Part shown: in pieces, positions 8,602 to 59,395 of the stretch
Layout: each line of letters begins with the position of its first letter
Position numbering within the stretch: the first letter of the stretch is position 1
Assembly: GCA_002716355.1 (NCBI GenBank)
Contig: PBAU01000003.1
Span: forward strand, 8,597-72,596
DNA length: 64,000 nt
Source: a bacterium
Lineage (GTDB): Bacteria > UBP7 > UBA6624
Direction: 5' to 3'
Program-made: the position numbers and the translations under genes
The notes under the pieces: model-generated
The model's input: only the letters and a program-made list of their open reading frames with translations
Told to the model about the DNA's origin: nothing
Database searches by the model: none

Positions 8602-10101
8602 ATGTGTGAAAACATGTCTGATCCAGGATCTCCACCTTTTGTTAGGGGAATATATAAAGATATGTATAAAAAAAAACCATGGACAATGAGGCAGTATTCA
8701 GGCTTTAGCACTGCAGAACAAACAAACAAAAGATTTAAAAATTTATTAAAAAATGGTCAGACTGGATTGTCTGTTGCTTTTGATCTCCCTACACAGATGG
8801 GCCTTGACAGTGATAACGCTTTATCAATTGGAGAGGTGGGGCGAGCCGGTGTTGCAATAGACACAATTGAGGATATGAGGATATTGTTGGATGGAATACC
8901 TTTAGATAAGGTAAGTATATCTATGACAATTAATTCTCCTGCTTCAATAATATGGGCAATGTTGCTTGTTGTGGCCGAAGAGCAAAATGTTTCTTGGAAA
9001 AATATAAGGGGAACTATACAGAATGATATATTGAAAGAATACGTTGCTAGAGGGACGTACATCTTTCCGCCAGAGCCTAGTATGAAATTAACAAAAGATA
9101 CTTTTGAGATGGTTGAAAATGTTCCAAACTTCAACCCTATTAGCATTTCGGGGTACCACATAAGGGAGGCAGGTGCCAGTGCGGCTCTCGAGCTTGGTAT
9201 AACATTTTCTCATGCTATTGCTTATTTAGATGTTGCAAAAAATACAAATTTAGATTTTGAAAAAGTTGTCAAAAGGTTTTCTTTCTTTTTCGGCTGTCAT
9301 AATGATATCTTTGAAGAAGTAGCAAAGTTTAGAGCTGCAAGATGGATTTGGAATGATATCCTTGAAGACTACGGTGTGAATGATTTGAATGCAAGAAAAT
9401 TAAGATTTCATACTCAAACTTGTGGTTCAACATTGACAAGAAACCAACCTTTGTTAAATGTTGCAAGAGTTGCATTGCAAGCTTTGGCAGCAACATTAGG
9501 GGGAACTCAGTCATTGCATACTAATGCATATGATGAAGCAATTGGTTTGCCAACTGAAGAATCCGCGCTTATTGCCTTGAGGACCCAGCAGATTCTTTAC
9601 CATGAAAGTGGGCTTTCAAGAGAGGTTGATCCGTTTGGTGGTTCCCAGTTCATTGAAAATGAAACATGCAGGATAAGAAAAGAAACAAATCAAATTATTG
9701 ATTTAATAAAAAAATCCGGAGGTGCAATTAAGTCTGTTGAAAATGGCTTGACCTCATCTTTGATACATGAAGAAAGCCACAAATACCAAAAAGAAATTGA
9801 AAACAAAGAAAGGTTGATAATTGGGGTGAATTCTTTTGAAGAAAATTCATCAGAGATTCCAGACCCTCAGTTGATACCAGAAAAAACTAGAGAGAATCAA
9901 ATAAAAAAGTTAAACCACATAAAAAATTCAAGAGATGATAATCTGGCTAAAGAAGCTTTGCAAGCTTTATCTAAAAGTCAAAAAAGAAATGATAATTTAA
10001 TGCCCTGTATATTAAGTGCTGTTAAGAAAAAATGCACGATTGGTGAAATTTGCGCTGAACTTGGTCGATTTTGGGGAACACATTCGCAAATATCATCATA
10101 A
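8602..10101 (+). CDS. methylmalonyl-CoA mutase family, substrate-binding (catalytic) large subunit. No B12-binding domain is present.
   Basis: N-terminal signature PWTMRQYSGFSTAEQTNKRFKNLLKNGQTGLSVAFDLPTQMGLDSD. About 495 aa, the size of the acyl-CoA mutase catalytic domain only. Confidence 0.85.
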   Translation: MCENMSDPGSPPFVRGIYKDMYKKKPWTMRQYSGFSTAEQTNKRFKNLLKNGQTGLSVAFDLPTQMGLDSDNALSIGEVGRAGVAIDTIEDMRILLDGIPLDKVSISMTINSPASIIWAMLLVVAEEQNVSWKNIRGTIQNDILKEYVARGTYIFPPEPSMKLTKDTFEMVENVPNFNPISISGYHIREAGASAALELGITFSHAIAYLDVAKNTNLDFEKVVKRFSFFFGCHNDIFEEVAKFRAARWIWNDILEDYGVNDLNARKLRFHTQTCGSTLTRNQPLLNVARVALQALAATLGGTQSLHTNAYDEAIGLPTEESALIALRTQQILYHESGLSREVDPFGGSQFIENETCRIRKETNQIIDLIKKSGGAIKSVENGLTSSLIHEESHKYQKEIENKERLIIGVNSFEENSSEIPDPQLIPEKTRENQIKKLNHIKNSRDDNLAKEALQALSKSQKRNDNLMPCILSAVKKKCTIGEICAELGRFWGTHSQISS

Positions 10102-20101: not shown

Positions 20102-20226
20102 AAAATTCCGAAAAGTTAAAAGGCAAGAGCTTGAGCCTGTTTAGCGCTTTGCTTCTTTTGTTTGCAATCTGGCTTGGCGTCAAGCTTGCTTTGGTTTTTA
20201 TGCTCTGGGTAACCGTGGTTAATTAA
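20098..20226 (+). CDS. 42-aa single-pass membrane micro-protein (MKNSEKLKGKSLSLFSALLLLFAIWLGVKLALVFMLWVTVVN), not in the ORF track
   Basis: The ATG overlaps the NHL gene's TGA (ATGA). Its TAA overlaps the ATG of the next gene (TAATG). Hydrophobic core, no internal stops. Confidence 0.45.
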   Translation: MKNSEKLKGKSLSLFSALLLLFAIWLGVKLALVFMLWVTVVN

Positions 20227-21470
20227 TGGTATCTAGATTTTACGGTAAGCAATCATTTGATTTTGAATGGCCTCGTGGTTGGAATGTTGAAACAATGCTT
20301 CCTCAAGAAAGGCCTTTTGTCCTGGATGAATTTGACATTCTTGAAGATGCTCTTGAGCAGCCTGTTGGAACAAGGACTCTTGACAAGGTAGTTAACAAAA
20401 AAGACAAGATATTAATTATTGTTCCTGATTCAAATAGAGAATTTAGATACGAGCTCGTGCTAAATTCCATCATTCGAAAAATATCAAAAATAAACAAGGA
20501 CATTGTTTTTATGATTGTCGGAACCGATATGAATGAACTTTATGTAGAGGATCAATACATAAAGTTCATTAAAGGATTGGATGGTGTCAAAAAAGTCATA
20601 CAGTATTCACCTGAGGATAAGTTTGACTCTAGCGGAAAGACAAAAGCAGGAACTCGTATAAAAACGAACAAGTATCTAAATGCTTTTACAAAAATAATTA
20701 CAATCGATCAGATAAACTTTCATGATTTAGTTGGTTATTCTGGAGGGCCTGAGACGCTTGTAAACACATGCAGTATAGAAACAATTACAAAAAATAGATC
20801 TCTTGTTTTCAATAAGGATAAAACTAGAAATCCAAGATGTTCAGCTGCAAGATTAAAGGGAAACATAATTTATGAAGACTTGATAGAGATATCAGCAAAC
20901 CTGAAACCACATTTCAATATAAATATTTTGCTTGATGAAAACAAAAAGATCGCAAGGGTTTTTTGTGGTGATTTTAGCTACTGCCATATGGACGGCTCAA
21001 AAGTTGTAATGGGATTTTATAGAGCTCTTGTTCCCAGGCGTAAAGTTTTAATAGCAAGTGCAGGTGGAGCTCCTTTTGATAACACTTTATCAGAAGCTCT
21101 GAAAGGTATTTTGTTTTGGTATAAAACAGTTAGCCCAAGAGGCGCGTTGTTTTATTCTGCTGAATGTTCATCAGGCTTTGGCAATAAAGAAATATTTAAA
21201 TGGGCAGCTTATCCTGCTGAGGTCTTGAGACAGAAGATAATTGATGACTTTAGTCCCGCTGCTTACAATGTTTTGAGGCTAAAAGAGGCTCAAAGACACT
21301 GTGATATATTCATCAACTCTTCACTTCCGAATGATGAATTGGAATTTCTTGGATTTAAGCCAGTGTCCAATTTTCCTGAAGGTTTGCTTAAGTTGAGAAA
21401 ATACTCTGAGGGCCTCCCTGAGCTTGCATGGATTCCAAATGCTTGTCAGGTTTTGGGTATTCCAGGATGA
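20226..21470 (+). CDS. LarA-like (lactate racemase N-terminal / DUF2088) family protein
   Basis: Size (414 aa) and motif FHDLVGYSGGPETL resembling the H-x-x-G-(F/Y)-S-G-G nickel-pincer-binding motif of LarA. No larB/C/E are nearby. Confidence 0.5.
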   Translation: MVSRFYGKQSFDFEWPRGWNVETMLPQERPFVLDEFDILEDALEQPVGTRTLDKVVNKKDKILIIVPDSNREFRYELVLNSIIRKISKINKDIVFMIVGTDMNELYVEDQYIKFIKGLDGVKKVIQYSPEDKFDSSGKTKAGTRIKTNKYLNAFTKIITIDQINFHDLVGYSGGPETLVNTCSIETITKNRSLVFNKDKTRNPRCSAARLKGNIIYEDLIEISANLKPHFNINILLDENKKIARVFCGDFSYCHMDGSKVVMGFYRALVPRRKVLIASAGGAPFDNTLSEALKGILFWYKTVSPRGALFYSAECSSGFGNKEIFKWAAYPAEVLRQKIIDDFSPAAYNVLRLKEAQRHCDIFINSSLPNDELEFLGFKPVSNFPEGLLKLRKYSEGLPELAWIPNACQVLGIPG

Positions 21471-21925
21471 AGGTTTTCTCAACAAACAAGAAAGCACATT
21501 ATCTATATGAAATTTCAGAAAAGTTTGAAGCTGGAGTTTCTCTTGAAGGTTGGGAGGTCCGCTCCATAAGGGAGGGTAGGCTGAACCTAAATCAAGCTCA
21601 TGCAAAAATCAAAGATGGAGAATTGTGGATCATAGGGTCACACATAGCTCCACTTCCCCAATCTTCTGAAAGTCAGAATTCAACAAGAGACAGGAAGCTT
21701 TTACTCAAGAAAAAGCAGATACTTGACATTGACAGGAAGATAGAACCTAAAGGTGTGACCGTTGTTCCGCTCAAAGCTTACCAGTCTCGAGGTAGAATAA
21801 AGATGGAAATCGCCATTGGGAAAGGAAGGACCAAGGCTGACAAAAGGTCAAGGATTCTTGAAGAACTTGACAGGAGAGATGCAAAAGAGTCAGTCAAGAG
21901 GGCCATGAGGGGAGGCGATTACTAA
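21467..21925 (+). CDS. smpB: SsrA-binding protein
   Basis: Conserved SmpB core (KKAHYLYEISEKFEAGVSLEGWEV...LLLKK). The start at MKVF overlaps the upstream stop by 4 nt. tmRNA lies immediately downstream. Confidence 0.9.
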   Translation: MKVFSTNKKAHYLYEISEKFEAGVSLEGWEVRSIREGRLNLNQAHAKIKDGELWIIGSHIAPLPQSSESQNSTRDRKLLLKKKQILDIDRKIEPKGVTVVPLKAYQSRGRIKMEIAIGKGRTKADKRSRILEELDRRDAKESVKRAMRGGDY

Positions 21926-21936
21926 GATATAGATTT

Positions 21937-22265
21937 GGGGGCGACTGGCTTCGACGGAAGTTGGAACAGTCGGGTTGCAAGCAGGTTTGTCATATCCCTT
22001 GATTGTGACAAAAAAAGTAAACGGCAAAAACGCTTACGCATTTGCTTAATTTAATTTAAGCAAGCTCCTCCTTTCAAGTCCATGTGAGAAAGGGTAGGGG
22101 CTCAGAAATCATGGAACGGCTCCCGGACCGTTATTCGGGGTTTTTGCTTTGAGGCCTGCCGTTTGATTGTTTAGGGTAGGTTGAGCATTTAAAACAATCT
22201 AAGCTTGTAGACACTCGTCTCAATAAGACAACCGGACCCGGGTTCAATTCCCGGCGCCTCCACCA
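21937..22265 (+). ncRNA. ssrA: tmRNA (ssrA), standard one-piece form
   Basis: 5' GGGGGCGACUGGCUUCGACGG and 3' GGACCCGGGUUCAAUUCCCGGCGCCUCCACCA. The acceptor stem carries G3:U70. T-arm GGUUCAAUUCC. Encoded CCA. Internal tag reading frame at 22022-22048 (GGC AAA AAC GCT TAC GCA TTT GCT TAA = GKNAYAFA*). Confidence 0.9.
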
Positions 22266-22291
22266 ATCCTGCTAGTTGGTTAGAATCATCA

Positions 22292-22759
22292 TTGATGAAA
22301 AAAAGGCAGATCAATTCGTTCCTTGTAATCATGGTGTCGATTGCAGTTGCTGTCTTTGTCACACAGATACTTGAATCATTGGGTCATTTTGCATTCTCAA
22401 GGGATCTCATAGAGGAAATCAGTGCGTTTGAAGATCCTGATGAGATGAAAGAGGCTTATGTGTCAATGGTTGAGAAGATGTCCTTTCCAGCAAAGCTTTC
22501 GGTTTTGATTTCGTGGTTTCTCGGAGCCATGAGCGGAGGTTTCATTTCAAGTCTCATGTCCTCAACGAATAAGGTGTTCCATGCAAAGATGATTGGCTAC
22601 ATATACCTTTTCTTCACGATATTGACACTCTTGAACATCCCGCATCCATGGTGGATGTGGCTTTCCGTCTTTCTCATAATCCCGGCTTCCTTTATAGGCA
22701 GCAGCTTCATTCCCGCCAAGGCAAAAGATTCTGAAGAGCCTGAGATCATAGAACCCTAG
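22292..22759 (+). CDS. hypothetical integral membrane protein (about 4 TM) in the GC-shifted segment
   Basis: Hydrophobic segments. Codon usage visibly richer in G/C-ending codons than flanking genes. Confidence 0.45.
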   Translation: MMKKRQINSFLVIMVSIAVAVFVTQILESLGHFAFSRDLIEEISAFEDPDEMKEAYVSMVEKMSFPAKLSVLISWFLGAMSGGFISSLMSSTNKVFHAKMIGYIYLFFTILTLLNIPHPWWMWLSVFLIIPASFIGSSFIPAKAKDSEEPEIIEP

Positions 22760-22803
22760 AAACTTTCAGGCACCTTTACAGGTAAATCTATTTAGGTGTA
22801 GCC

Positions 22804-23070
22804 ATGATTACTGATCCCTTTGTCATCCTTTTCGTGCTGGGGCTTCCGCTTTTCTTCCTGGCTTTCCTGATAAGGGATTGGAGTAAGGGCAAGCGAAATC
22901 CTGCATTTCTCATATTCTTCTTGCCTTGCCTGTATTTCATGTGGAACGGATTTGTTTCGGATGCCTGGGACTATATCGAGGCTGCAAGCTCTGTCGCTTC
23001 GGTTGCAGGGATCATCTACATGATAAAGAGGGCGGAATCGACTGACCTCAAACCTAGAATAAAAGACTGA
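22804..23070 (+). CDS. hypothetical small membrane protein (88 aa, 2-3 TM)
   Basis: ORF with hydrophobic helices. Same compositional shift. Confidence 0.4.
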   Translation: MITDPFVILFVLGLPLFFLAFLIRDWSKGKRNPAFLIFFLPCLYFMWNGFVSDAWDYIEAASSVASVAGIIYMIKRAESTDLKPRIKD

Positions 23071-23256
23071 AAGTCAACAAAATGACGCTGATGCAATATT
23101 TTCCATATCCCTTGCTGAACCAGGGAGGGGCCGGCTTGATTATCGTATTCTTTTGGATAGCGATTCCTATTGTTGCAACCTGCCTTTGTTTCTTGTGTAT
23201 TTTGCATACAGGAAAGGAAGGGCAAAGAGTTAGGGCTAGATGTTATAGTATTCAGG

Positions 23257-23754
23257 ATGAATAAAATATTTTTTGCATTGTTCCTGACATTGCTGTACTG
23301 GGTGTTCAAGAGTTGGATATTCTTGATGTGGCCCATGATTCCCCTGTACCTTTCTGTGTTTATTGCTCTCTTCTGGAAAGACCTAAGAAAAGACTGGATT
23401 GCATTCCTGAAGAGGCCAGCATTTTCACTGCCTCTCACGCTCTATCTTTTTGCAAGGCTTCATGGAGGCCCTGTTGGAGAGGTTGTTTCAGCTTTTGAGT
23501 CACTTTGGTTTGTATTTGCGCCACTCTGGTTTTACATTGTTGTTGAAGATGTGAAGGCCCGTCCTGAGAAAACTGAACCAGAAAAGGTCAACCCTGTTGC
23601 GAATGGCTTCAAGTGGGCGCTTTTCGCTTTCATTGTCACTTTCGGCGCTCTTTTTGGGGCTCCAAATGAAAATGCAGTTGCAGTATTGGCAATGATATGG
23701 ATAGGATTCGGATTGATCGGTTATGCAAGGGCTGGAGGCTTTAAGAGGAAATAA
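23257..23754 (+). CDS. hypothetical integral membrane protein (about 5 TM). The track ORF starts at 23170, but the likely start is MNKIFFALF.
   Basis: Hydrophobic segments, W/F-rich. Same compositional shift. Confidence 0.45.
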   Translation: MNKIFFALFLTLLYWVFKSWIFLMWPMIPLYLSVFIALFWKDLRKDWIAFLKRPAFSLPLTLYLFARLHGGPVGEVVSAFESLWFVFAPLWFYIVVEDVKARPEKTEPEKVNPVANGFKWALFAFIVTFGALFGAPNENAVAVLAMIWIGFGLIGYARAGGFKRK

Positions 23755-23763
23755 AATAGCACT

Positions 23764-24480
23764 ATGAGAGTTGATGGACGAAAATTTGATGAGCTTAGGC
23801 CAATTGAGATCATTCCAAACTGGACAGAGAACCCTGATGGTTCCGTTTTGATAAAGTGGGGCAGGACATGGGTTTTGTGCACGGCCTCAGTTGAATACAG
23901 GTCTCCCATGTGGCAAAAGGAAAAGGATGAAGGGTGGGTTACCGGTGATTACGGAATGCTCCCAGGTTCGACTGACACAAGGAAGAGAAGGCCTGGCCTG
24001 AAGCCAGACAGCAGAGGCACTGAGATAAAAAGGCTTATAGGAAGAAGCTTGAGAGGTGCATGTGACCTTTCTGCGATACCTGGATGGACCATATCCGTTG
24101 ATTGTGATGTGCTTCAGGCAGACGGAGGAACGCGTGTTGCATCAATTACAGGCGGAATGATAGCTTTAAGCATCGCAGCTGAATCAATGGTTGAAAAAGG
24201 CCTTCTGGCTTCTGTGAGCAAACTCATAACAGAGCCAGTGATAGCGATTTCATTAGGGATAGTTGGTGAAGACGCTGTTCTTGATCTTAACTATAAAGAA
24301 GACTCGACTGCTGAGGTTGACTTGAACCTTGTAGGGACATTGAATGGAAAATGCATTGAGGTTCAAGGCACATCAGAGGGAAGGGCGATGGAGAAAGAGG
24401 ATCTTGACAACCTTTTGGATTTAGGCTTTAAAGGTCTTTCCAAGGTTTCTGAAATAGCAAAGCCCTTCATTAACGTTTGA
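23764..24480 (+). CDS. rph: ribonuclease PH
   Basis: 238 aa. Strong RNase PH motifs (MRVDGR...LRP, VLCTASVE, GWVTGDYGMLPGST, TRKRR, DCDVLQADGGTR, ASITGG). Confidence 0.9.
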   Translation: MRVDGRKFDELRPIEIIPNWTENPDGSVLIKWGRTWVLCTASVEYRSPMWQKEKDEGWVTGDYGMLPGSTDTRKRRPGLKPDSRGTEIKRLIGRSLRGACDLSAIPGWTISVDCDVLQADGGTRVASITGGMIALSIAAESMVEKGLLASVSKLITEPVIAISLGIVGEDAVLDLNYKEDSTAEVDLNLVGTLNGKCIEVQGTSEGRAMEKEDLDNLLDLGFKGLSKVSEIAKPFINV

Positions 24481-24489
24481 TAGCGATTT

Positions 24490-24714
24490 ATGCTCTATAA
24501 CCTATTCTTTGTGCTGACATGCCTATGCATCGCTTACCTATCAGGAGCTAGAAGCGGAATGATATTCCTTTGGTTCATCCCTTTCCTTTTGATTAAGTTT
24601 GTCAATCTTTCGACCTATTCGTTAGCTGGCATCTTTCTGATCCTCTTTGTTGTTTGCGTCAGGATAATGCAAAAAGGCACCTATGGTGACACTTGGGGCG
24701 AAAAGGATGTTTAA
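24490..24714 (+). CDS. hypothetical small membrane protein (74 aa)
   Basis: ORF with two hydrophobic helices. Confidence 0.35.
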   Translation: MLYNLFFVLTCLCIAYLSGARSGMIFLWFIPFLLIKFVNLSTYSLAGIFLILFVVCVRIMQKGTYGDTWGEKDV

Positions 24715-24830
24715 CGAGTGGGGCACTTTTAACTCTATATAGGTATTTCCGATAATCAAGATTATGTTACATAATTAATAAAACAGAGGGAATGCTGTTT
24801 TATTAAAGCTTTAAATCCTTTATTATTAGC

Positions 24831-25040
24831 ATGATGAAGAAGTTCCTTTTAGCTTTATGTGCTCCAGTACTTGGCTTAGCCAGCCTGAATGGCTTAATCG
24901 CTATAGCATGCTCTTTTATTGCATCTAATCTTTTTGATAGCTTTTGGCTCGGGAAAGGCTTATGGATATTGCCTATTTCTTTTTATTTATTTTTTTACTA
25001 CCTGATTGCTTTTGTGAATTTTAGAAAGCAGACCGGTTAG
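24831..25040 (+). CDS. hypothetical small membrane protein (69 aa)
   Basis: ORF with two hydrophobic helices. Possible signal peptide. Confidence 0.3.
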   Translation: MMKKFLLALCAPVLGLASLNGLIAIACSFIASNLFDSFWLGKGLWILPISFYLFFYYLIAFVNFRKQTG

Positions 25041-25531
25041 AAAGCTGCACTTCTAAAGGTGAAGTTTTTTAGATCTTTTAAGAATTCTTTTGGTGTTTGT
25101 TTTTTAATGTCAGGAAAACCTCGGAATTTATGATTGTTAAAAGTGACTATCCTTTTGATGTCATTGTTTTTAATGGTCCAATACAGGTTAGCCTCTTCGA
25201 CATCAGATGTATAGAACCTTTCTTCTTCCATTTTTTCAAGACCTTTATCTAACTCGTATGCTGACATATGAAATATACGCATGTTGCCAAATGATTCAAG
25301 TTCTTTCACTATGCTATTCATGAGGTTATGTTTGAATGGAGGATATATTATGGATGGATTTGATAGTTTTGTAAACAGCTCTCCTATATGGTAGCCTGAT
25401 ATGATGCCCTGCACGTCACCATACTGACACCTCTCCCCTTTAAGTGAACTTAGAAGCTCCCTGCATTCATCTGTCTCTGGACATCTTATGAATGTTGCAA
25501 CAAGTGGGCCTTTATCAATCAAAAATCTCAT
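25037..25531 (-). CDS. hypothetical 164-aa protein, possibly a PIN-like nuclease (toxin candidate)
   Basis: Acidic residues are spaced like the PIN catalytic D/E/D/D pattern (FLIDKG near the N-terminus, YELDKG near residue 95, TSDVEE near residue 110). It overlaps the upstream HTH gene by 17 nt. Confidence 0.3.
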   Translation of the reverse strand: MRFLIDKGPLVATFIRCPETDECRELLSSLKGERCQYGDVQGIISGYHIGELFTKLSNPSIIYPPFKHNLMNSIVKELESFGNMRIFHMSAYELDKGLEKMEEERFYTSDVEEANLYWTIKNNDIKRIVTFNNHKFRGFPDIKKQTPKEFLKDLKNFTFRSAAF

Positions 25532-25826
25532 GCTTTAACCTTATTTCAACTGTTGCTATTGGTAGATTCAGCAGCCTGTGATCCCCTTTTGTCATAGGGT
25601 CTGGAGATGATTCGACTTCGTATTGAAGCACCGCAGAAGGCTTTGATTTTGTTTCAGACATAAATTCTGTAATGCTTGATTTGTGAAAATAAATCCTCTT
25701 TCCTCTCTTTATCCCAGATATCTGACCTTCCCTATAGTACTTTCTTACTGTAAAGGGTTTAACTGAAAGTAGCTTTGCAACTTCTTCTACAGTTAAAAAA
25801 TCGTTGTTTGATCCTTCTGGTAACAT
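25515..25826 (-). CDS. excisionase/MerR-like (HTH_17) DNA-binding protein, antitoxin or regulator candidate
   Basis: LTVEEVAKLLSVKPFTVRKYYREGQISGIKRGKRIYF matches the Xis/HTH_17 helix-turn-helix pattern. Confidence 0.55.
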   Translation of the reverse strand: MLPEGSNNDFLTVEEVAKLLSVKPFTVRKYYREGQISGIKRGKRIYFHKSSITEFMSETKSKPSAVLQYEVESSPDPMTKGDHRLLNLPIATVEIRLKHEIFD

Positions 25827-26063
25827 ATACGCATAAATATTAACATAAAATAACTATTAAACAATATATAACAACATAAAAAATGCTTCAAATCAGTTAA
25901 AAAACAAACTGTAAAAAAGATATCTAGTTAATTTTCAGTTAATAAAATAACTAAAAAAAAACTTATCAAACTACCCTAATCCTTCCTTTTTTGACGTTTT
26001 TGATCATTTGCGATGCTGGCTTCATAAATATTGTTTTTTGATTATTTTTTTTAAAATGGGTAT

Positions 26064-27934: not shown

Positions 27935-28348
27935 TTATTGGTTTTTTATTTTTTCTTTTACTCTTTGAGACACTTTATCAATTTCTTTTGATATTTGGCA
28001 TTCCCAAAACCTCATAACAACCCATCCTTCTTTTTTAAGCCTTATGTTCGTTTCTGCATCTCTTTTTTTATTTTGCTTAAGCTTTTCATCCCAGTATTTT
28101 TTATTTGAAGATGGTTTTTTGTAACAGGATGGACACCCATGCCAAAAACATCCATCAACAAAAATTGATATTTTTTTGCCAACATAGCAAATATCAGGTT
28201 TTCCAGGTGCTTTGATGTAGTTTAACCTGTAACCTCTATATCCTGAATGCCAAAGATTTTTTCTTAGAGTTATTTCAGGCTTGGTATTTTTCCCTCTTAT
28301 TCGAGACATTATCTTGGATCTTGTTTTCTTGGAAACCCTATCGGTCAT
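27935..28348 (-). CDS. vsr: very-short-patch-repair (Vsr) T:G mismatch endonuclease
   Basis: Near-canonical Vsr motifs (RSKIMSRIR, PGKPDI, FVDGCFWHGC, YW..K...N..RD, WECQ). Confidence 0.9.
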   Translation of the reverse strand: MTDRVSKKTRSKIMSRIRGKNTKPEITLRKNLWHSGYRGYRLNYIKAPGKPDICYVGKKISIFVDGCFWHGCPSCYKKPSSNKKYWDEKLKQNKKRDAETNIRLKKEGWVVMRFWECQISKEIDKVSQRVKEKIKNQ

Positions 28349-28635
28349 TTTGAGTTCATAATGAAAGACATTGCTCCAAGTGAAGCATTGCCTTTCTCGT
28401 CATGGTTTTTTATGTCTGTTACCCTTTTGTCTTTTTCAAGTGTTTTTTTGGTCATTTCTCTCAAGACCCCCCCACTCTTCCCATGAATGACTGTTGCTTT
28501 TTTGATCTCATGTAAATCCAGGTCGTCAAGCCAGTTTAAAAGCATGTCCTCAGCTTCTTCAAATCTTTTTTTGCGAATGTTGAGTATTTTTGAAGGAGGA
28601 GATATCTCTGGAGATTCCCATGATGCACCCTTCAT
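28345..28635 (-). CDS. Smr (small MutS-related) domain protein
   Basis: Smr motif LHEIKKATVIHGKSGGVLRE. 4-nt overlap with vsr. Confidence 0.75.
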   Translation of the reverse strand: MKGASWESPEISPPSKILNIRKKRFEEAEDMLLNWLDDLDLHEIKKATVIHGKSGGVLREMTKKTLEKDKRVTDIKNHDEKGNASLGAMSFIMNSK

Positions 28636-56681: not shown

Positions 56682-58241
56682 TTACTCCCACTCGATAGTT
56701 GATGGTGGTTTTGTTGACACATCATATACGCAGCGATTTATGCCGTTTACCTCATTCATTATTCTGCTTGACATTTTTCTTATAAGGCTCCATGGAAGCT
56801 CTGGAAAGTCACATGTCATACCATCAACGCTTGTCACGGCACGTATGGCGCATAAGTGTTCATATGTTCTGCCATCACCCATTACGCCTACTGTTTTCAG
56901 GTCTGTAAGAACTGCAAAGTATTGCCAAACTTCTTCTTCAAGTATTGTGCTTTCTATTTCTTTTCTTACTATCTCATCAGCCTCTTGCAGGATTCTTAAT
57001 TTTTCATTCGTTATTTCGCCAATAATTCTTATTGCAAGGCCAGGGCCAGGAAAAGGTTGCCTGTATGCCATTTCTTCTGGTATTCCTATCTCTATTGCAA
57101 CCTTTCTAACCTCATCTTTGAAAAAATACCTTAAAGGTTCAACTAATTTAAACTTCATATCTTCTGGAAGCCCACCAACATTGTGGTGAGTTTTTATTGT
57201 TGAGCTTGGTCCACCTTTAGGGTCAAAAGATTCAATTACATCAGGATATAGCGTTCCTTGTGCAAGGTATTTTATATCCTGTCTTTCTTTTGAAAAATCC
57301 TCAAACACCCTTATAAATGACTCTCCAATTATTTTTCTTTTTTCCTCTGGATTGGTTATCCCTTTTAGTTTAGATAGAAATAATTCTGATGCATCAATAA
57401 CATTTAATTCAATATTGAAAAACTTAAATGCATTTTCGACCTCTTGCCTTTCATTTTTTCTGAGCAGGCCATGATCTATAAAAACACATGTTAGATTGTC
57501 TCCAATTGCTTTATGTATTAGCACCGCTGTTGTCACGCTGTCCACACCACCAGAAAGAGCGCATAAAACTTTTTCATCTTGGACTTCTTTCTTTATGTTT
57601 CTGATTGCCATCTTGCTTACTGATTCAGGAGTCCATGTTTTTTTACATCCTGCAACTTCTGAAGTGAAATTTTCAAGCAGATCTTTTCCCCAGACTGTAT
57701 GTGTTACCTCTGCATGAAATTGAATTCCATAAAGTTTTTTCTCTTTATTCTCAAAAGATGCAATAGGTATGTTTTTTGACCTTGCTAATGTTTCAAAACC
57801 TTCAGGAAGTCCTTTTACAAGATCTTTATGGCTCATCCAGCATACAAGATCTTCTTGAAGACCCTCAAAGAGTTTGTTTTCTTTTGTGACATTGATCTGG
57901 GTGCTTCCGTATTCGCTTTTTTCTCCAGGCTCAACAATCCCGCCCATTTCTTGTGCCATAAGTTGCATCCCATAGCATATTCCGAGTATAGGTATGTTTA
58001 GACTCCAGATATCTTTGTCGATTTTTGGGGAATTCTTTTCATGGACAGAGTCAGGGCCTCCTGAGAGTATTATGGCCTTTGGGGATCTTGCAGTGATTTC
58101 TTTTGCGGAGATCGTGTGTGGTTTTATTTCACAATATATATTTTGCTCTCTGATTCTTCTTGCTATCAGTCTTGCATACTGCGCCCCAAAGTCAATGATG
58201 ATAACCAGATCGTCAATTGGTTTTTTGTCCTGAATCTTCAC
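56682..58241 (-). CDS. guaA: GMP synthase (glutamine-hydrolysing)
   Basis: GATase1 (GICYGMQ), PP-loop SGGVDS, conserved C-terminal dimerisation domain ending ...TIEWE. Confidence 0.95.
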   Translation of the reverse strand: MKIQDKKPIDDLVIIIDFGAQYARLIARRIREQNIYCEIKPHTISAKEITARSPKAIILSGGPDSVHEKNSPKIDKDIWSLNIPILGICYGMQLMAQEMGGIVEPGEKSEYGSTQINVTKENKLFEGLQEDLVCWMSHKDLVKGLPEGFETLARSKNIPIASFENKEKKLYGIQFHAEVTHTVWGKDLLENFTSEVAGCKKTWTPESVSKMAIRNIKKEVQDEKVLCALSGGVDSVTTAVLIHKAIGDNLTCVFIDHGLLRKNERQEVENAFKFFNIELNVIDASELFLSKLKGITNPEEKRKIIGESFIRVFEDFSKERQDIKYLAQGTLYPDVIESFDPKGGPSSTIKTHHNVGGLPEDMKFKLVEPLRYFFKDEVRKVAIEIGIPEEMAYRQPFPGPGLAIRIIGEITNEKLRILQEADEIVRKEIESTILEEEVWQYFAVLTDLKTVGVMGDGRTYEHLCAIRAVTSVDGMTCDFPELPWSLIRKMSSRIMNEVNGINRCVYDVSTKPPSTIEWE

Positions 58242-59395
58242 TTAGCCTGGCCGACACCATCTACAAATTGATAATGTTTGCCTTCATCTTTTAGTGATGG
58301 ACAATGGACCACAGTTGCTTTTTGCATTTCTTGAATATTTATAGCCCCCACCATACCCATCGAATTTTTCAAACCGCCTATAAGGTTTAATGTGCCATCA
58401 TCCCTATCGCTTGGGCCAAAGAATAATTTTTCAAGTTCAACCATGTTTTTAACAGAGACTCTTGTCCCTCTAGGTAGATTGGGGTCCTGTGTCGCCATTC
58501 CCCAATGGTATCCTTCTCCTGGGGTTTCTTTTAAACCGCTAAAGCAGCTTCCTAACATTACAGCGTCTGCACCAGAAGCAATAGCTTTTGATATTTCCCC
58601 ACCTTTTCTCATGCCTCCATCAGTGATTATGGATACATATTTTCCTGTTTTTTCAAAATGAACATCTCTTGCTTTGCAGCAGGACATTGTTGCTGTGACT
58701 TGCCCAACCCCTACTCCAGTGACAGCTCTTGTAGTGCATGCTGCACCAGGCCCTATACCAACTAATATTCCGGCAGGCCCTGTTTGCATAAGTTCATAAG
58801 CTACATCCTGAGTCACACAGTTTCCTAGCACAACAGGAATTTCTATTCTTGCTATAAAGTCTTTGAGGTTCAAAGAGATTTTACCTCTATGGTTAGAGCT
58901 TATTACTGTTGCTTGTATGAAAATAACATCAGCACCTGCATCTCTTGCTAAAAAACCCAACCTTTCTGCATTTGCTGGTGTTACGCTAACTGCTGCATCG
59001 ATTCCTTTGTTTTTTAGCTCTTGCACCCTTAATGAAACAAGTTCTTCCTTTATGGGTTCAGCATAAAATTTTTGAATCACCTTTATGGCCTCTTGTGAAT
59101 TGCATGAGGTTATTTTGTTGAAAGCTTCAGTTGGATTTTCGTATTTTGTCTGTAAGCCTTCAAGGTTTAAAACGCCCATTGAGCCAACTTTAGATAGCCT
59201 TGAAGCAAAATTAACATCAACAGCTGAATCCATGGCGCTTGCAATTATTGGGATTTTTAATTTTGATTTGCCGATTTTTACAGAGGTGTCAACGTCTTTT
59301 GGATCCAAGGTGCTCAATCCTGGAAGTATTGAAACATCATCAAAACCATAAGTTGCTTGAAGTTGTGGTAAGAAGCTTTCTTTTAAATTTTCCAT
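58238..59395 (-). CDS. guaB: IMP dehydrogenase family protein lacking the CBS subdomain (GuaB-like)
   Basis: Catalytic loop VGIGPGAACTTR and GGMRKGGEISKA. 385 aa. Confidence 0.8.
   Translation of the reverse strand: MENLKESFLPQLQATYGFDDVSILPGLSTLDPKDVDTSVKIGKSKLKIPIIASAMDSAVDVNFASRLSKVGSMGVLNLEGLQTKYENPTEAFNKITSCNSQEAIKVIQKFYAEPIKEELVSLRVQELKNKGIDAAVSVTPANAERLGFLARDAGADVIFIQATVISSNHRGKISLNLKDFIARIEIPVVLGNCVTQDVAYELMQTGPAGILVGIGPGAACTTRAVTGVGVGQVTATMSCCKARDVHFEKTGKYVSIITDGGMRKGGEISKAIASGADAVMLGSCFSGLKETPGEGYHWGMATQDPNLPRGTRVSVKNMVELEKLFFGPSDRDDGTLNLIGGLKNSMGMVGAINIQEMQKATVVHCPSLKDEGKHYQFVDGVGQAK

Follow-up and report, generated by a model that had tools for sequence, protein, structure and literature searches.

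We analyzed a 64,000-nucleotide stretch of DNA (the window) from a bacterium of the lineage UBA6624 (UBP7; assembly GCA_002716355.1, contig PBAU01000003.1, positions 8,597 to 72,596), and in particular the GC-rich segment that adjoins its tmRNA gene, ssrA. This segment had been described from the sequence alone as a putative integrase-less genomic island, inserted immediately 3' of ssrA at positions 22266 to 25830 of the window and carrying a cargo of membrane proteins. We found that the GC-rich stretch is a conserved syntenic block and not an insertion, because the same string of genes, with the same rise in G+C content at third codon positions (GC3), occupies the same site in five species-level lineages. 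The locus is probably a hotspot of homologous recombination that is anchored on ssrA and frames a hypervariable set of genes for small membrane proteins, with the plateau in GC3 stemming from a bias linked to recombination.

The true extent of the compositional shift is approximately 21.45 to 24.77 kb (~3.3 kb), from smpB through the end of TM74. Mean GC was 0.356 for the 64-kb window, 0.440 for positions 22266-24714, and 0.443 for positions 21428-22265, which run from upstream of ssrA through that gene. Six successive 1-kb intervals between 21.0 and 24.5 kb had a GC content of 41.8-45.2%, each more than two standard deviations (SD) above the mean. The sole other interval in the 64 kb that exceeded 2 SD was 58001-59000. 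Genes there had ordinary GC3 (0.28-0.30) and raised GC at the first and second codon positions, and hence no shift at synonymous sites. Outside the region, GC3 was 0.279 ± 0.032 (57 open reading frames, ORFs). The six ORFs of the block, all on the forward strand, ranged from 0.42 to 0.56 (z = 4.3-8.8): smpB (21467-21925; 0.42, z = 4.4), TM155 (22292-22759; 0.53), TM88 (22804-23070; 0.56, z = 8.8), TM165 (23257-23754; 0.44, listed as TM165/194), rph, encoding RNase PH (23764-24480; 0.42), and TM74 (24490-24714; 0.51). The block differed from the rest of the window in its counts of GC-ending and AT-ending codons (chi-square = 142, p = 1e-32). Nearly all amino acids were affected, and both G-ending and C-ending codons were more frequent in the block than elsewhere (AAG, 0.53 vs 0.21; AGG, 0.60 vs 0.27; TTC, 0.52 vs 0.22), with the fraction of TTA falling to 0.05 from 0.28.

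The sliding-window GC and codon statistics that had been proposed as a check therefore revealed a significant deviation, and the original prediction was right that a GC-richer segment with different synonymous codons adjoins the tmRNA gene (21937-22265, + strand). It was also right that the listed ORFs exist and that the membrane proteins have multiple transmembrane (TM) segments. It placed the limits of the shift incorrectly. Rather than starting where ssrA ends, the shift is already present in smpB and in the DNA leading into ssrA, and it does not extend to 25.8 kb: GC3 is only 0.37 in TM69, 0.34 in a 164-amino-acid (aa) ORF and 0.29 in a helix-turn-helix (HTH) gene.

We compared the window with marine metagenome contigs (from Tara and other projects), all of them metagenome assemblies, that represent the window species and four further species-level lineages. 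One of these (contigs L021 and L052) has flanks that are 87-89% identical to those of the window. A second (L050, L051 and L055) is ~87-89% identical to the window and ~91-93% identical to L021 in the flanks. Species C (L024, L037, L038 and L056) has flanks ~75% identical to the window, and species D (L047, L048, L049 and L057) has flanks ~70-76% identical to the window and ~83% identical to species C. The order of genes in all lineages is NHL, LarA, smpB, ssrA, TM155, (TM88), TM165 or its ortholog TM189, rph, TM74 or TM76, and TM69, and continues with the 164-aa ORF, the HTH gene, SSF, NUDIX, Vsr and Smr. No ORF homologous to TM88 was found at that position in the ORF lists of species C (L037 and L038). 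All five species-level lineages have the genes of 22266-24714, in collinear order, and only the cargo of two variable slots, described below, is polymorphic. The same GC3 bump lies over the same genes in L021, in L050, L051 and L055, in species C, and in L047, L048 and L057 of species D. In these relatives, GC3 was 0.24-0.37 in the flanks (mostly 0.26-0.33) and 0.42-0.61 in the conserved arms of the block. A search for relatives that lack the segment, also proposed with the original prediction, found the segment syntenic and core in all of them, the outcome that had been named as speaking against an island.

A deeper relative (L043 and L044, in which rph is 67% identical, the closest rph homolog found beyond the genus) is GC-rich throughout its genome, with GC3 of 0.5-0.6. 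It retains rph, the HTH gene paired with a 169-aa ORF, NUDIX, Smr, ABC2, ArgRS and Ddl in synteny. The HTH/164-aa pair, which had been taken for an Xis-like pair carried as cargo, has normal GC3 and flank-like divergence (91-92% identity), and it has been retained in all species; even this GC-rich outgroup has it beside rph. The pair is thus a core neighbor of the block.

Divergence between species was sharply reduced within the block. In a sliding comparison with L021, identity was 85-90% in the flanks and rose to 94-99% inside the block, and comparisons of the window with L021, L050 and L051, which come from independent assemblies, gave 94-99.6% identity in the block and 86-90% in the flanks. 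Synonymous divergence (dS, estimated by the Nei-Gojobori method) between the window and L021 was 0.02-0.19 for the six block genes (smpB, 0.19; TM165, 0.09; rph, 0.14) and 0.41-0.77 for twelve flank genes. This four- to six-fold drop in dS across a species boundary is limited to the block. TM155 is 96.8% identical to its counterpart in L021, compared with 87% in the flanks, and TM74 is 99.1-100% identical across three species. Divergence of TM69 (83-86% identity to L021 and L051) is like that of the flanks. The left edge of the low-divergence tract is gradual, over positions 21420-21680. The right boundary falls within 24715-24774 and is sharp: there were no differences from L021 or L051 over positions 24627-24774, and differences were dense from there onward. 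The ssrA gene is 97.6-100% identical among lineages whose flanks are only 75-89% identical.

The extent of the reduction depends on which species are compared. Between the window and species C, dS in the block was 0.8-1.55, near saturation and close to that of the flanks. Between species C and species D, dS of smpB and rph was 0.88, similar to that of the flanks (0.35-1.7; median ~0.9), and dS was 0.06 for TM189, 0.25 for TM76 and 0.43 for TM155, indicating a mosaic. A uniformly low mutation rate or constraint on synonymous sites was considered and rejected, because dS of smpB and rph is flank-like between species C and D, and because the TM genes are hyper-diverse within the window species.

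Within the window species, flanks are 98.5-99.2% identical and TM155, TM88 and TM165 are only 94-98.9% identical. Identity of TM88 is 94-97% within the species and 96% between species. TM165 of L021 nests within the diversity of the window species (95.5-96.9% compared with 95.8-99.4%). For both TM88 and TM165, the distance from strains of the window species to the L021 allele does not exceed the distance among these strains themselves. By the four-gamete test, 11-17% of the informative pairs of sites were incompatible in the block, compared with 1.8-9% in the flanks. The alleles of the block were reproducible between assemblies: L050 and L051 are 99-100% identical except in TM88 (96%), and L021 and L052 are 98% identical. 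Taken together, these sequence comparisons indicate that strains, and also species, have exchanged the block by homologous replacement. The suggestion that the segment was acquired horizontally was therefore correct in that the locus is exchanged horizontally, but the route appears to be homologous replacement between species and not insertion of an island.

A possible case of exchange between species is a haplotype found in two contigs, L015 and L058. These combine the backbone of the window species with a cassette of TM155 and a 264-aa ORF that is 99.6-99.8% identical to that of L047, from species D. The crossover lies at positions 22159-22212, in the 3' third of ssrA. The identical runs that flank the junction are only ~52-56 bp, and two assemblers agree on it. 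We first downgraded this haplotype as a possible chimera formed through ssrA, and the second contig, L058, partly rehabilitated it. It could still be a chimera, because ssrA is 97.6-100% identical in all lineages.

Variable DNA was found in two slots. The first, slot A, lies right after ssrA. In species C, the sequences of strains that otherwise share ~99% identity part exactly where ssrA ends (...CTCCACCA), and all of them resume at the start of TM155. Slot A contains 16 bp in L038. In L037 (7910-8877), it contains 965 bp with a gene for a GT2/GT92-like glycosyltransferase (302 aa; GC3 of 0.28), and in L024 (10797-11198) and L056 (1658-2058) it contains ~400 bp with a 123-aa ORF (GC3 of 0.22) that matched no family. 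No repeats of ssrA (att repeats) flank the cargo of slot A. The site immediately 3' of the tmRNA gene, which had been singled out as an insertion point, is thus a slot for strain-specific genes in species C, but in the window it is empty, with a 26-bp spacer (22266-22291).

The second slot, slot B, lies between TM88 and TM165. In the window (23078-23224) it contains only a truncated 60-aa ORF (23082-23264). Elsewhere it contains ORFs of 248 aa (L012 and L020), 264 aa (L015, L047 and L058), or 135 or 126 aa (L021 and L050), or a lysine-rich C-terminus (L002), and L057 has yet another variant. The cargo of slot B has GC3 of 0.31-0.46 and that of slot A 0.22-0.28. Hence the truly foreign cargo is AT-rich, and the GC-rich DNA is the conserved frame around it. 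Dozens of contigs from independent assemblies end at slot B, with breaks at positions 23033-23388; the join found in the window is itself spanned by L007 and L008. In a Tara scaffold (L001), a 100-N gap at 9322-9421, equivalent to window positions 23185-23239, separates two sides that overlap by 55 bp, and L013 and L003, from a single SPAdes assembly, have the same 55-bp overlap at slot B. This overlap is a branch in the assembly graph produced by co-occurring slot-B haplotypes.

The cargo consists of small multi-TM proteins and one glycosyltransferase, and neither it nor the conserved membrane proteins matched any entry in PADLOC or PHROGs. TM155 has four predicted TM segments and TM165 has four to five. 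In a word-indexed search of 5.8 billion proteins, both were restricted to this genus, with only four clusters at ≥75% identity for TM155 and three for TM165. A HMMER profile search with TM155 detected 354 weak relatives (E = 1e-11 to 1e-3), membrane proteins of ~135 aa that belong to no Pfam family; the contigs that encode distant relatives are too short to reveal their gene neighborhood. The cargo proteins of slot B share with TM88 and TM165 a short motif that follows the first TM helix, approximately KDW-x-KG-x-K-x-P and then LWFVF (window 22804-23070 and 23257-23754; L047, 792-1586; L021, 11660-12067; L050, 9570-9950). Overall identity among these proteins is only ~25%. The shared motif suggests that they may form a diversifying family of paralogous small membrane proteins.

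These observations are consistent with the following sequence of events. The near-invariant ssrA, which provides 329 bp of near-identity in otherwise diverged genomes, and the conserved genes adjoining it would serve as homology arms. Incoming DNA from other strains or species would replace all or part of the block by homologous, not site-specific, recombination, and non-homologous cargo is swapped in slot A, right after ssrA, and in slot B, between TM88 and TM165. Co-conversion would involve the segments smpB and TM155-rph, and repeated conversion would keep them similar, sustaining further exchange. Frequent recombination may keep GC3 high, either because heteroduplexes are repaired with a bias toward GC, as in GC-biased gene conversion (gBGC), or because selection for GC acts more effectively where recombination is common. 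Diversifying selection, for example by phage or grazers, may drive the turnover of the membrane-protein cargo.

We looked for the machinery of site-specific integration and found none. Pfam and NCBIfam scans of the ORFs in 20226-25826, together with precomputed Pfam hits for the wider neighborhood, detected no integrase or recombinase; the only related match in those scans was a stand-alone winged helix-turn-helix (wHTH) protein of the excisionase type, which is core in all relatives. Searches of the 64-kb window with the 3'-terminal 26-mer and 15-mer of ssrA, allowing up to three mismatches, matched only ssrA itself. These results agree with the original report of no integrase, recombinase or clean repeat of the tmRNA 3' end. 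That report had also proposed a search for a partial repeat near 24.7-25.9 kb, and none was found in the window. There was no repeat family of note in the window, and in 11 related loci ssrA's 3' end was not found repeated other than as a 12-mer with one mismatch, on the opposite strand and upstream of ssrA, in species C. No relative of TM155 and no ssrA 3'-end 26-mer was found among IMG/VR viral contigs, which were searched for a phage vehicle. A scan for promoters and terminators gave counts at chance level.

A degraded island without an integrase, or an acquired membrane-protein module, inserted at the tmRNA 3' end would account for an atypical composition next to ssrA, for the orphan status of the membrane proteins, and for the strain-specific inserts that species C has directly at the 3' end of ssrA. 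We nevertheless consider it very improbable. The shift starts upstream of ssrA, in smpB, so that the block straddles ssrA; the block contains smpB and rph, the latter syntenic with downstream core genes even in the GC-rich outgroup; it is present and collinear in all five species; the HTH/164-aa pair is core; and there is neither an att repeat nor an integrase. The low divergence could also arise if contigs of different species had been joined through the conserved ssrA during assembly or binning. Many contigs do break at ssrA or slot B, the Tara scaffold has its N-gap with 55-bp overlapping ends at slot B, and the mosaic of the L015 type switches inside ssrA. Such chimeras cannot produce a GC3 bump in every species, however, and at least 10 assemblies, made independently by different projects and with different assemblers, run without interruption across both edges of the block, neither of which lies at ultra-conserved sequence. 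Species-specific block alleles were reproducible between assemblies as well, and we find an artefact hardly credible.

Two other explanations concern the origin of the high GC3. The block could have been imported repeatedly from an unsampled, GC-richer relative by homologous replacement and then have ameliorated, so that its GC would reflect the composition of the donor. GC-rich kin do exist (L043 and L044), the genes with the lowest dS between species tend to have the highest GC3 (TM74, TM88, TM155 and TM189), and the recent bias toward AT (~2.4-2.8:1) is near the ~2.3:1 expected for GC3 decaying from 0.47 toward 0.28. Against this, no GC-rich genome with TM155 or TM165 was found among 5.8 billion proteins, GTDB representatives and JGI contigs, and every retrieved contig long enough to show its flanks has AT-rich ones. 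In addition, smpB and rph hold GC3 at 0.41-0.52 where dS is saturated or flank-like, which would require several separate donors, and the strain-specific cargo that was actually imported is AT-rich. We regard a GC-rich donor as rather unlikely. It is also conceivable, though we think it improbable, that smpB, ssrA, the TM genes, rph and TM74 form one highly transcribed operon, in which selection on codons or transcription-coupled repair raises GC3 and lowers the number of substitutions. The plateau does coincide with a tight, co-directional string of genes, with spacers of 9-44 bp except for the 186-bp region of slot B (23071-23256). Its end coincides with the first AT-rich intergenic gap of appreciable size (24715-24830), and no convincing terminator was found after ssrA. 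G-ending codons (AAG, GAG, CAG and AGG), however, are raised as much as C-ending ones, a pattern that translational selection does not usually leave in AT-rich genomes. The dS of smpB and rph, flank-like in the comparison of species C with D and near saturation when the window is set against species C, refutes a uniform reduction in rate. Within the window species, diversity is higher in the TM genes than in the flanks, and GC3 of the LarA-like gene, outside the block, is also raised in species C and L023. Translational selection on codons was considered separately and found unlikely, since G-ending codons rise like C-ending ones; the window contains no ribosomal-protein or EF-Tu genes for calibration.

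We return to recombination at the locus as the source of the plateau. Because the plateau persists in five species despite saturated synonymous turnover, some long-term force must maintain it, and because it coincides with the recombining tract, a fixation bias linked to recombination is the most economical and the most likely cause. In agreement with gBGC, GC3 is raised specifically in the recombining segment and across codon families, and is not raised in the non-homologous cargo. The more specific proposal, that in every species of this uncultured, AT-rich marine genus recombination has raised GC3 from 0.28 to ~0.5 over a sharply bounded 3.3 kb by GC-biased repair, conceivably by the Vsr-family protein encoded 3 kb away, is tentative and seems to us possible but doubtful.

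Several observations weigh against recombination with a linked bias as the explanation of the locus. No GC-biased fixation was visible on a recent timescale. Among polarized changes in the block (recent differences between single genomes), 56 were from strong (G or C) to weak (A or T) bases and 23 were from weak to strong, and gBGC predicts an excess of the latter. On the branches to L021 and L051 the ratio was 31:11; among strains of the window species it was 25:12. These AT-biased recent changes imply that there is no local GC-biased mutation. They are what mutation bias yields on short timescales, and they fit equally well with decay after import, that is, amelioration of imported GC-rich DNA. 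A GC3 excess of ~0.2 looks large for an effect of recombination in bacteria. The sharp right edge and the lack of a clear gradient in GC3 away from the slots resemble a discrete unit rather than diffuse tracts. Finally, because all of the data are metagenome assemblies, some of the mosaics could be chimeras assembled through the conserved ssrA. We did not use polarized substitutions in the flanks: with an outgroup dS of ~0.6, the apparent excess of weak-to-strong changes there is likely to be an artefact of parsimony.

The locus resembles known islands and prophages that target ssrA in that variable, strain-specific genes occur right downstream of a single-copy tmRNA gene (in species C, after ...CCACCA). 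The ssrA islands of Dehalococcoides have an integrase module and, at their far boundary, a direct repeat of ~20 bp from the 3' end of ssrA (PMC3146451, PMC2764846). In contrast, neither an integrase nor an ssrA repeat was found here, whether in the window or in its relatives; ssrA and smpB are themselves part of the GC-shifted DNA, which is a conserved block; the segment shows no presence/absence polymorphism; and the shift in composition does not start at the 3' end of the RNA gene.

The locus fits better with a miniature replacement-type flexible island, a class to which O-antigen and capsule loci are similar, with the unusual addition of a sharp, genus-wide GC3 plateau on its arms. In aquatic bacteria, islands of this type are exchanged via homologous recombination in the conserved regions that flank them (Lopez-Perez et al. 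2014, PMC4033161). As in those islands, the chromosomal site is fixed in all strains, gene content in slots A and B is non-homologous between strains, and there are no mobility genes. Homologous recombination is evident in the conserved flanks of the slots (from dS, the mosaic, the four-gamete test and the crossover in ssrA), substitutions within the species are elevated beside the variable part (TM genes, 94-98% identity, vs 98.5-99%), and some alleles are common to several lineages. Unlike those islands, the locus is of very small size; its cargo amounts to 0-1 kb and encodes mostly tiny membrane proteins and not polysaccharide clusters, and one of its arms is a structural RNA gene. Its arms have a GC3 excess of ~0.2 and are exchanged between species that are 87-89% identical in their flanks.

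Higher GC3 has been linked to recombination in bacteria (PMC4450053, PMC11879095), and two causes have been proposed, gBGC (Lassalle et al. 2015, PMC4450053) and selection made more effective by recombination (PMC11879095). The locus is similar to the pattern described in those studies in that GC3 is higher exactly where recombination is detectable and in that G-ending and C-ending codons are generally affected. It differs in having a single sharp plateau at one locus in five species and recent substitutions that are biased toward AT, and its effect looks larger than that in genome-wide contrasts. If GC-biased repair did raise GC3 here, the block would offer a natural signature of gBGC in bacteria that is unusually strong and resolved to a single locus. 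Since the choice between gBGC and selection is under active debate (PMC4450053, PMC11879095), the coincidence of the plateau with a species-crossing tract in five species provides a compact system for testing how recombination and GC content are related. Calling islands by composition would misfire at this locus, which looks like a textbook tmRNA island and is conserved core DNA. The locus also suggests that ultra-conserved RNA genes can be entry points for homologous, and not only site-specific, recombination in streamlined marine genomes.

The core genes smpB, rph and ssrA each match a curated family model above threshold. The product of smpB, which forms the left arm of the block, matches Pfam SmpB (E = 5e-46, 156 bits). 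The ssrA gene was found by ARAGORN and by Rfam model RF00023 (139 bits; gathering score, 47). RNase PH, whose gene follows TM165 at the start of the right arm, matches Pfam RNase_PH (97.6 bits) and RNase_PH_C (40.8 bits). The last gene of the block encodes TM74, a tiny membrane protein, and TM155 is a small membrane protein kept across the genus. The rph gene of L051 (10508-11223) is divided between two ORFs, of 78 and 143 aa. It is intact in the near-identical L050 and L055, and the split is either a frameshift pseudogene of that strain or an assembly error. The tag peptide encoded by ssrA in the window is GKNAYAFA. For ssrA of species C (L024, L037 and L038), which is 97.6% identical to that of the window, ARAGORN gave a different and implausible tag, AQKSWNGSRTVIRGFALRPAV, so tag calling is unstable in this lineage.

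Beyond the right boundary, TM69 (24831-25040, + strand) encodes a tiny membrane protein and lies outside the block, although it had been counted as part of the island. The 164-aa ORF (25037-25531, - strand) had no match in Pfam, NCBIfam, PDB sequences, PADLOC or PHROGs. The excisionase-type wHTH protein (25515-25826, - strand) matched HTH_17 and TIGR01764 above cut-off. In the GC-rich outgroup, a 152-aa ORF with GC3 of 0.30 (L044, 79-537) lies upstream of a gene for a TPR protein and rph; it is a compositional outlier in the opposite direction and may be a foreign gene at the equivalent position.

Upstream of smpB, a LarA-like gene (20226-21470, + strand) overlaps, at its stop codon, the start of smpB by 4 bp. 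Its product belongs to the nickel-pincer cofactor 2-hydroxyacid racemase family, with best matches to malate-racemase subfamilies that are far below the cut-offs. Its GC3 is normal in the window (0.29) and is 0.36-0.41 in species C and L023. Downstream of the block, on the reverse strand (27935-28635), is an orphan gene at 27935-28348 for a Vsr-family T:G mismatch endonuclease (Pfam Vsr, 81.9 bits), directly upstream of a gene for a small Smr-domain protein, with no cytosine methyltransferase gene near the pair. Proteins of the Vsr family repair T:G mismatches to C:G, and by this family function the protein is a conceivable source of GC-biased heteroduplex repair. The Vsr/Smr pair is kept in the AT-rich relatives, and the GC-rich outgroup retains the Smr gene.

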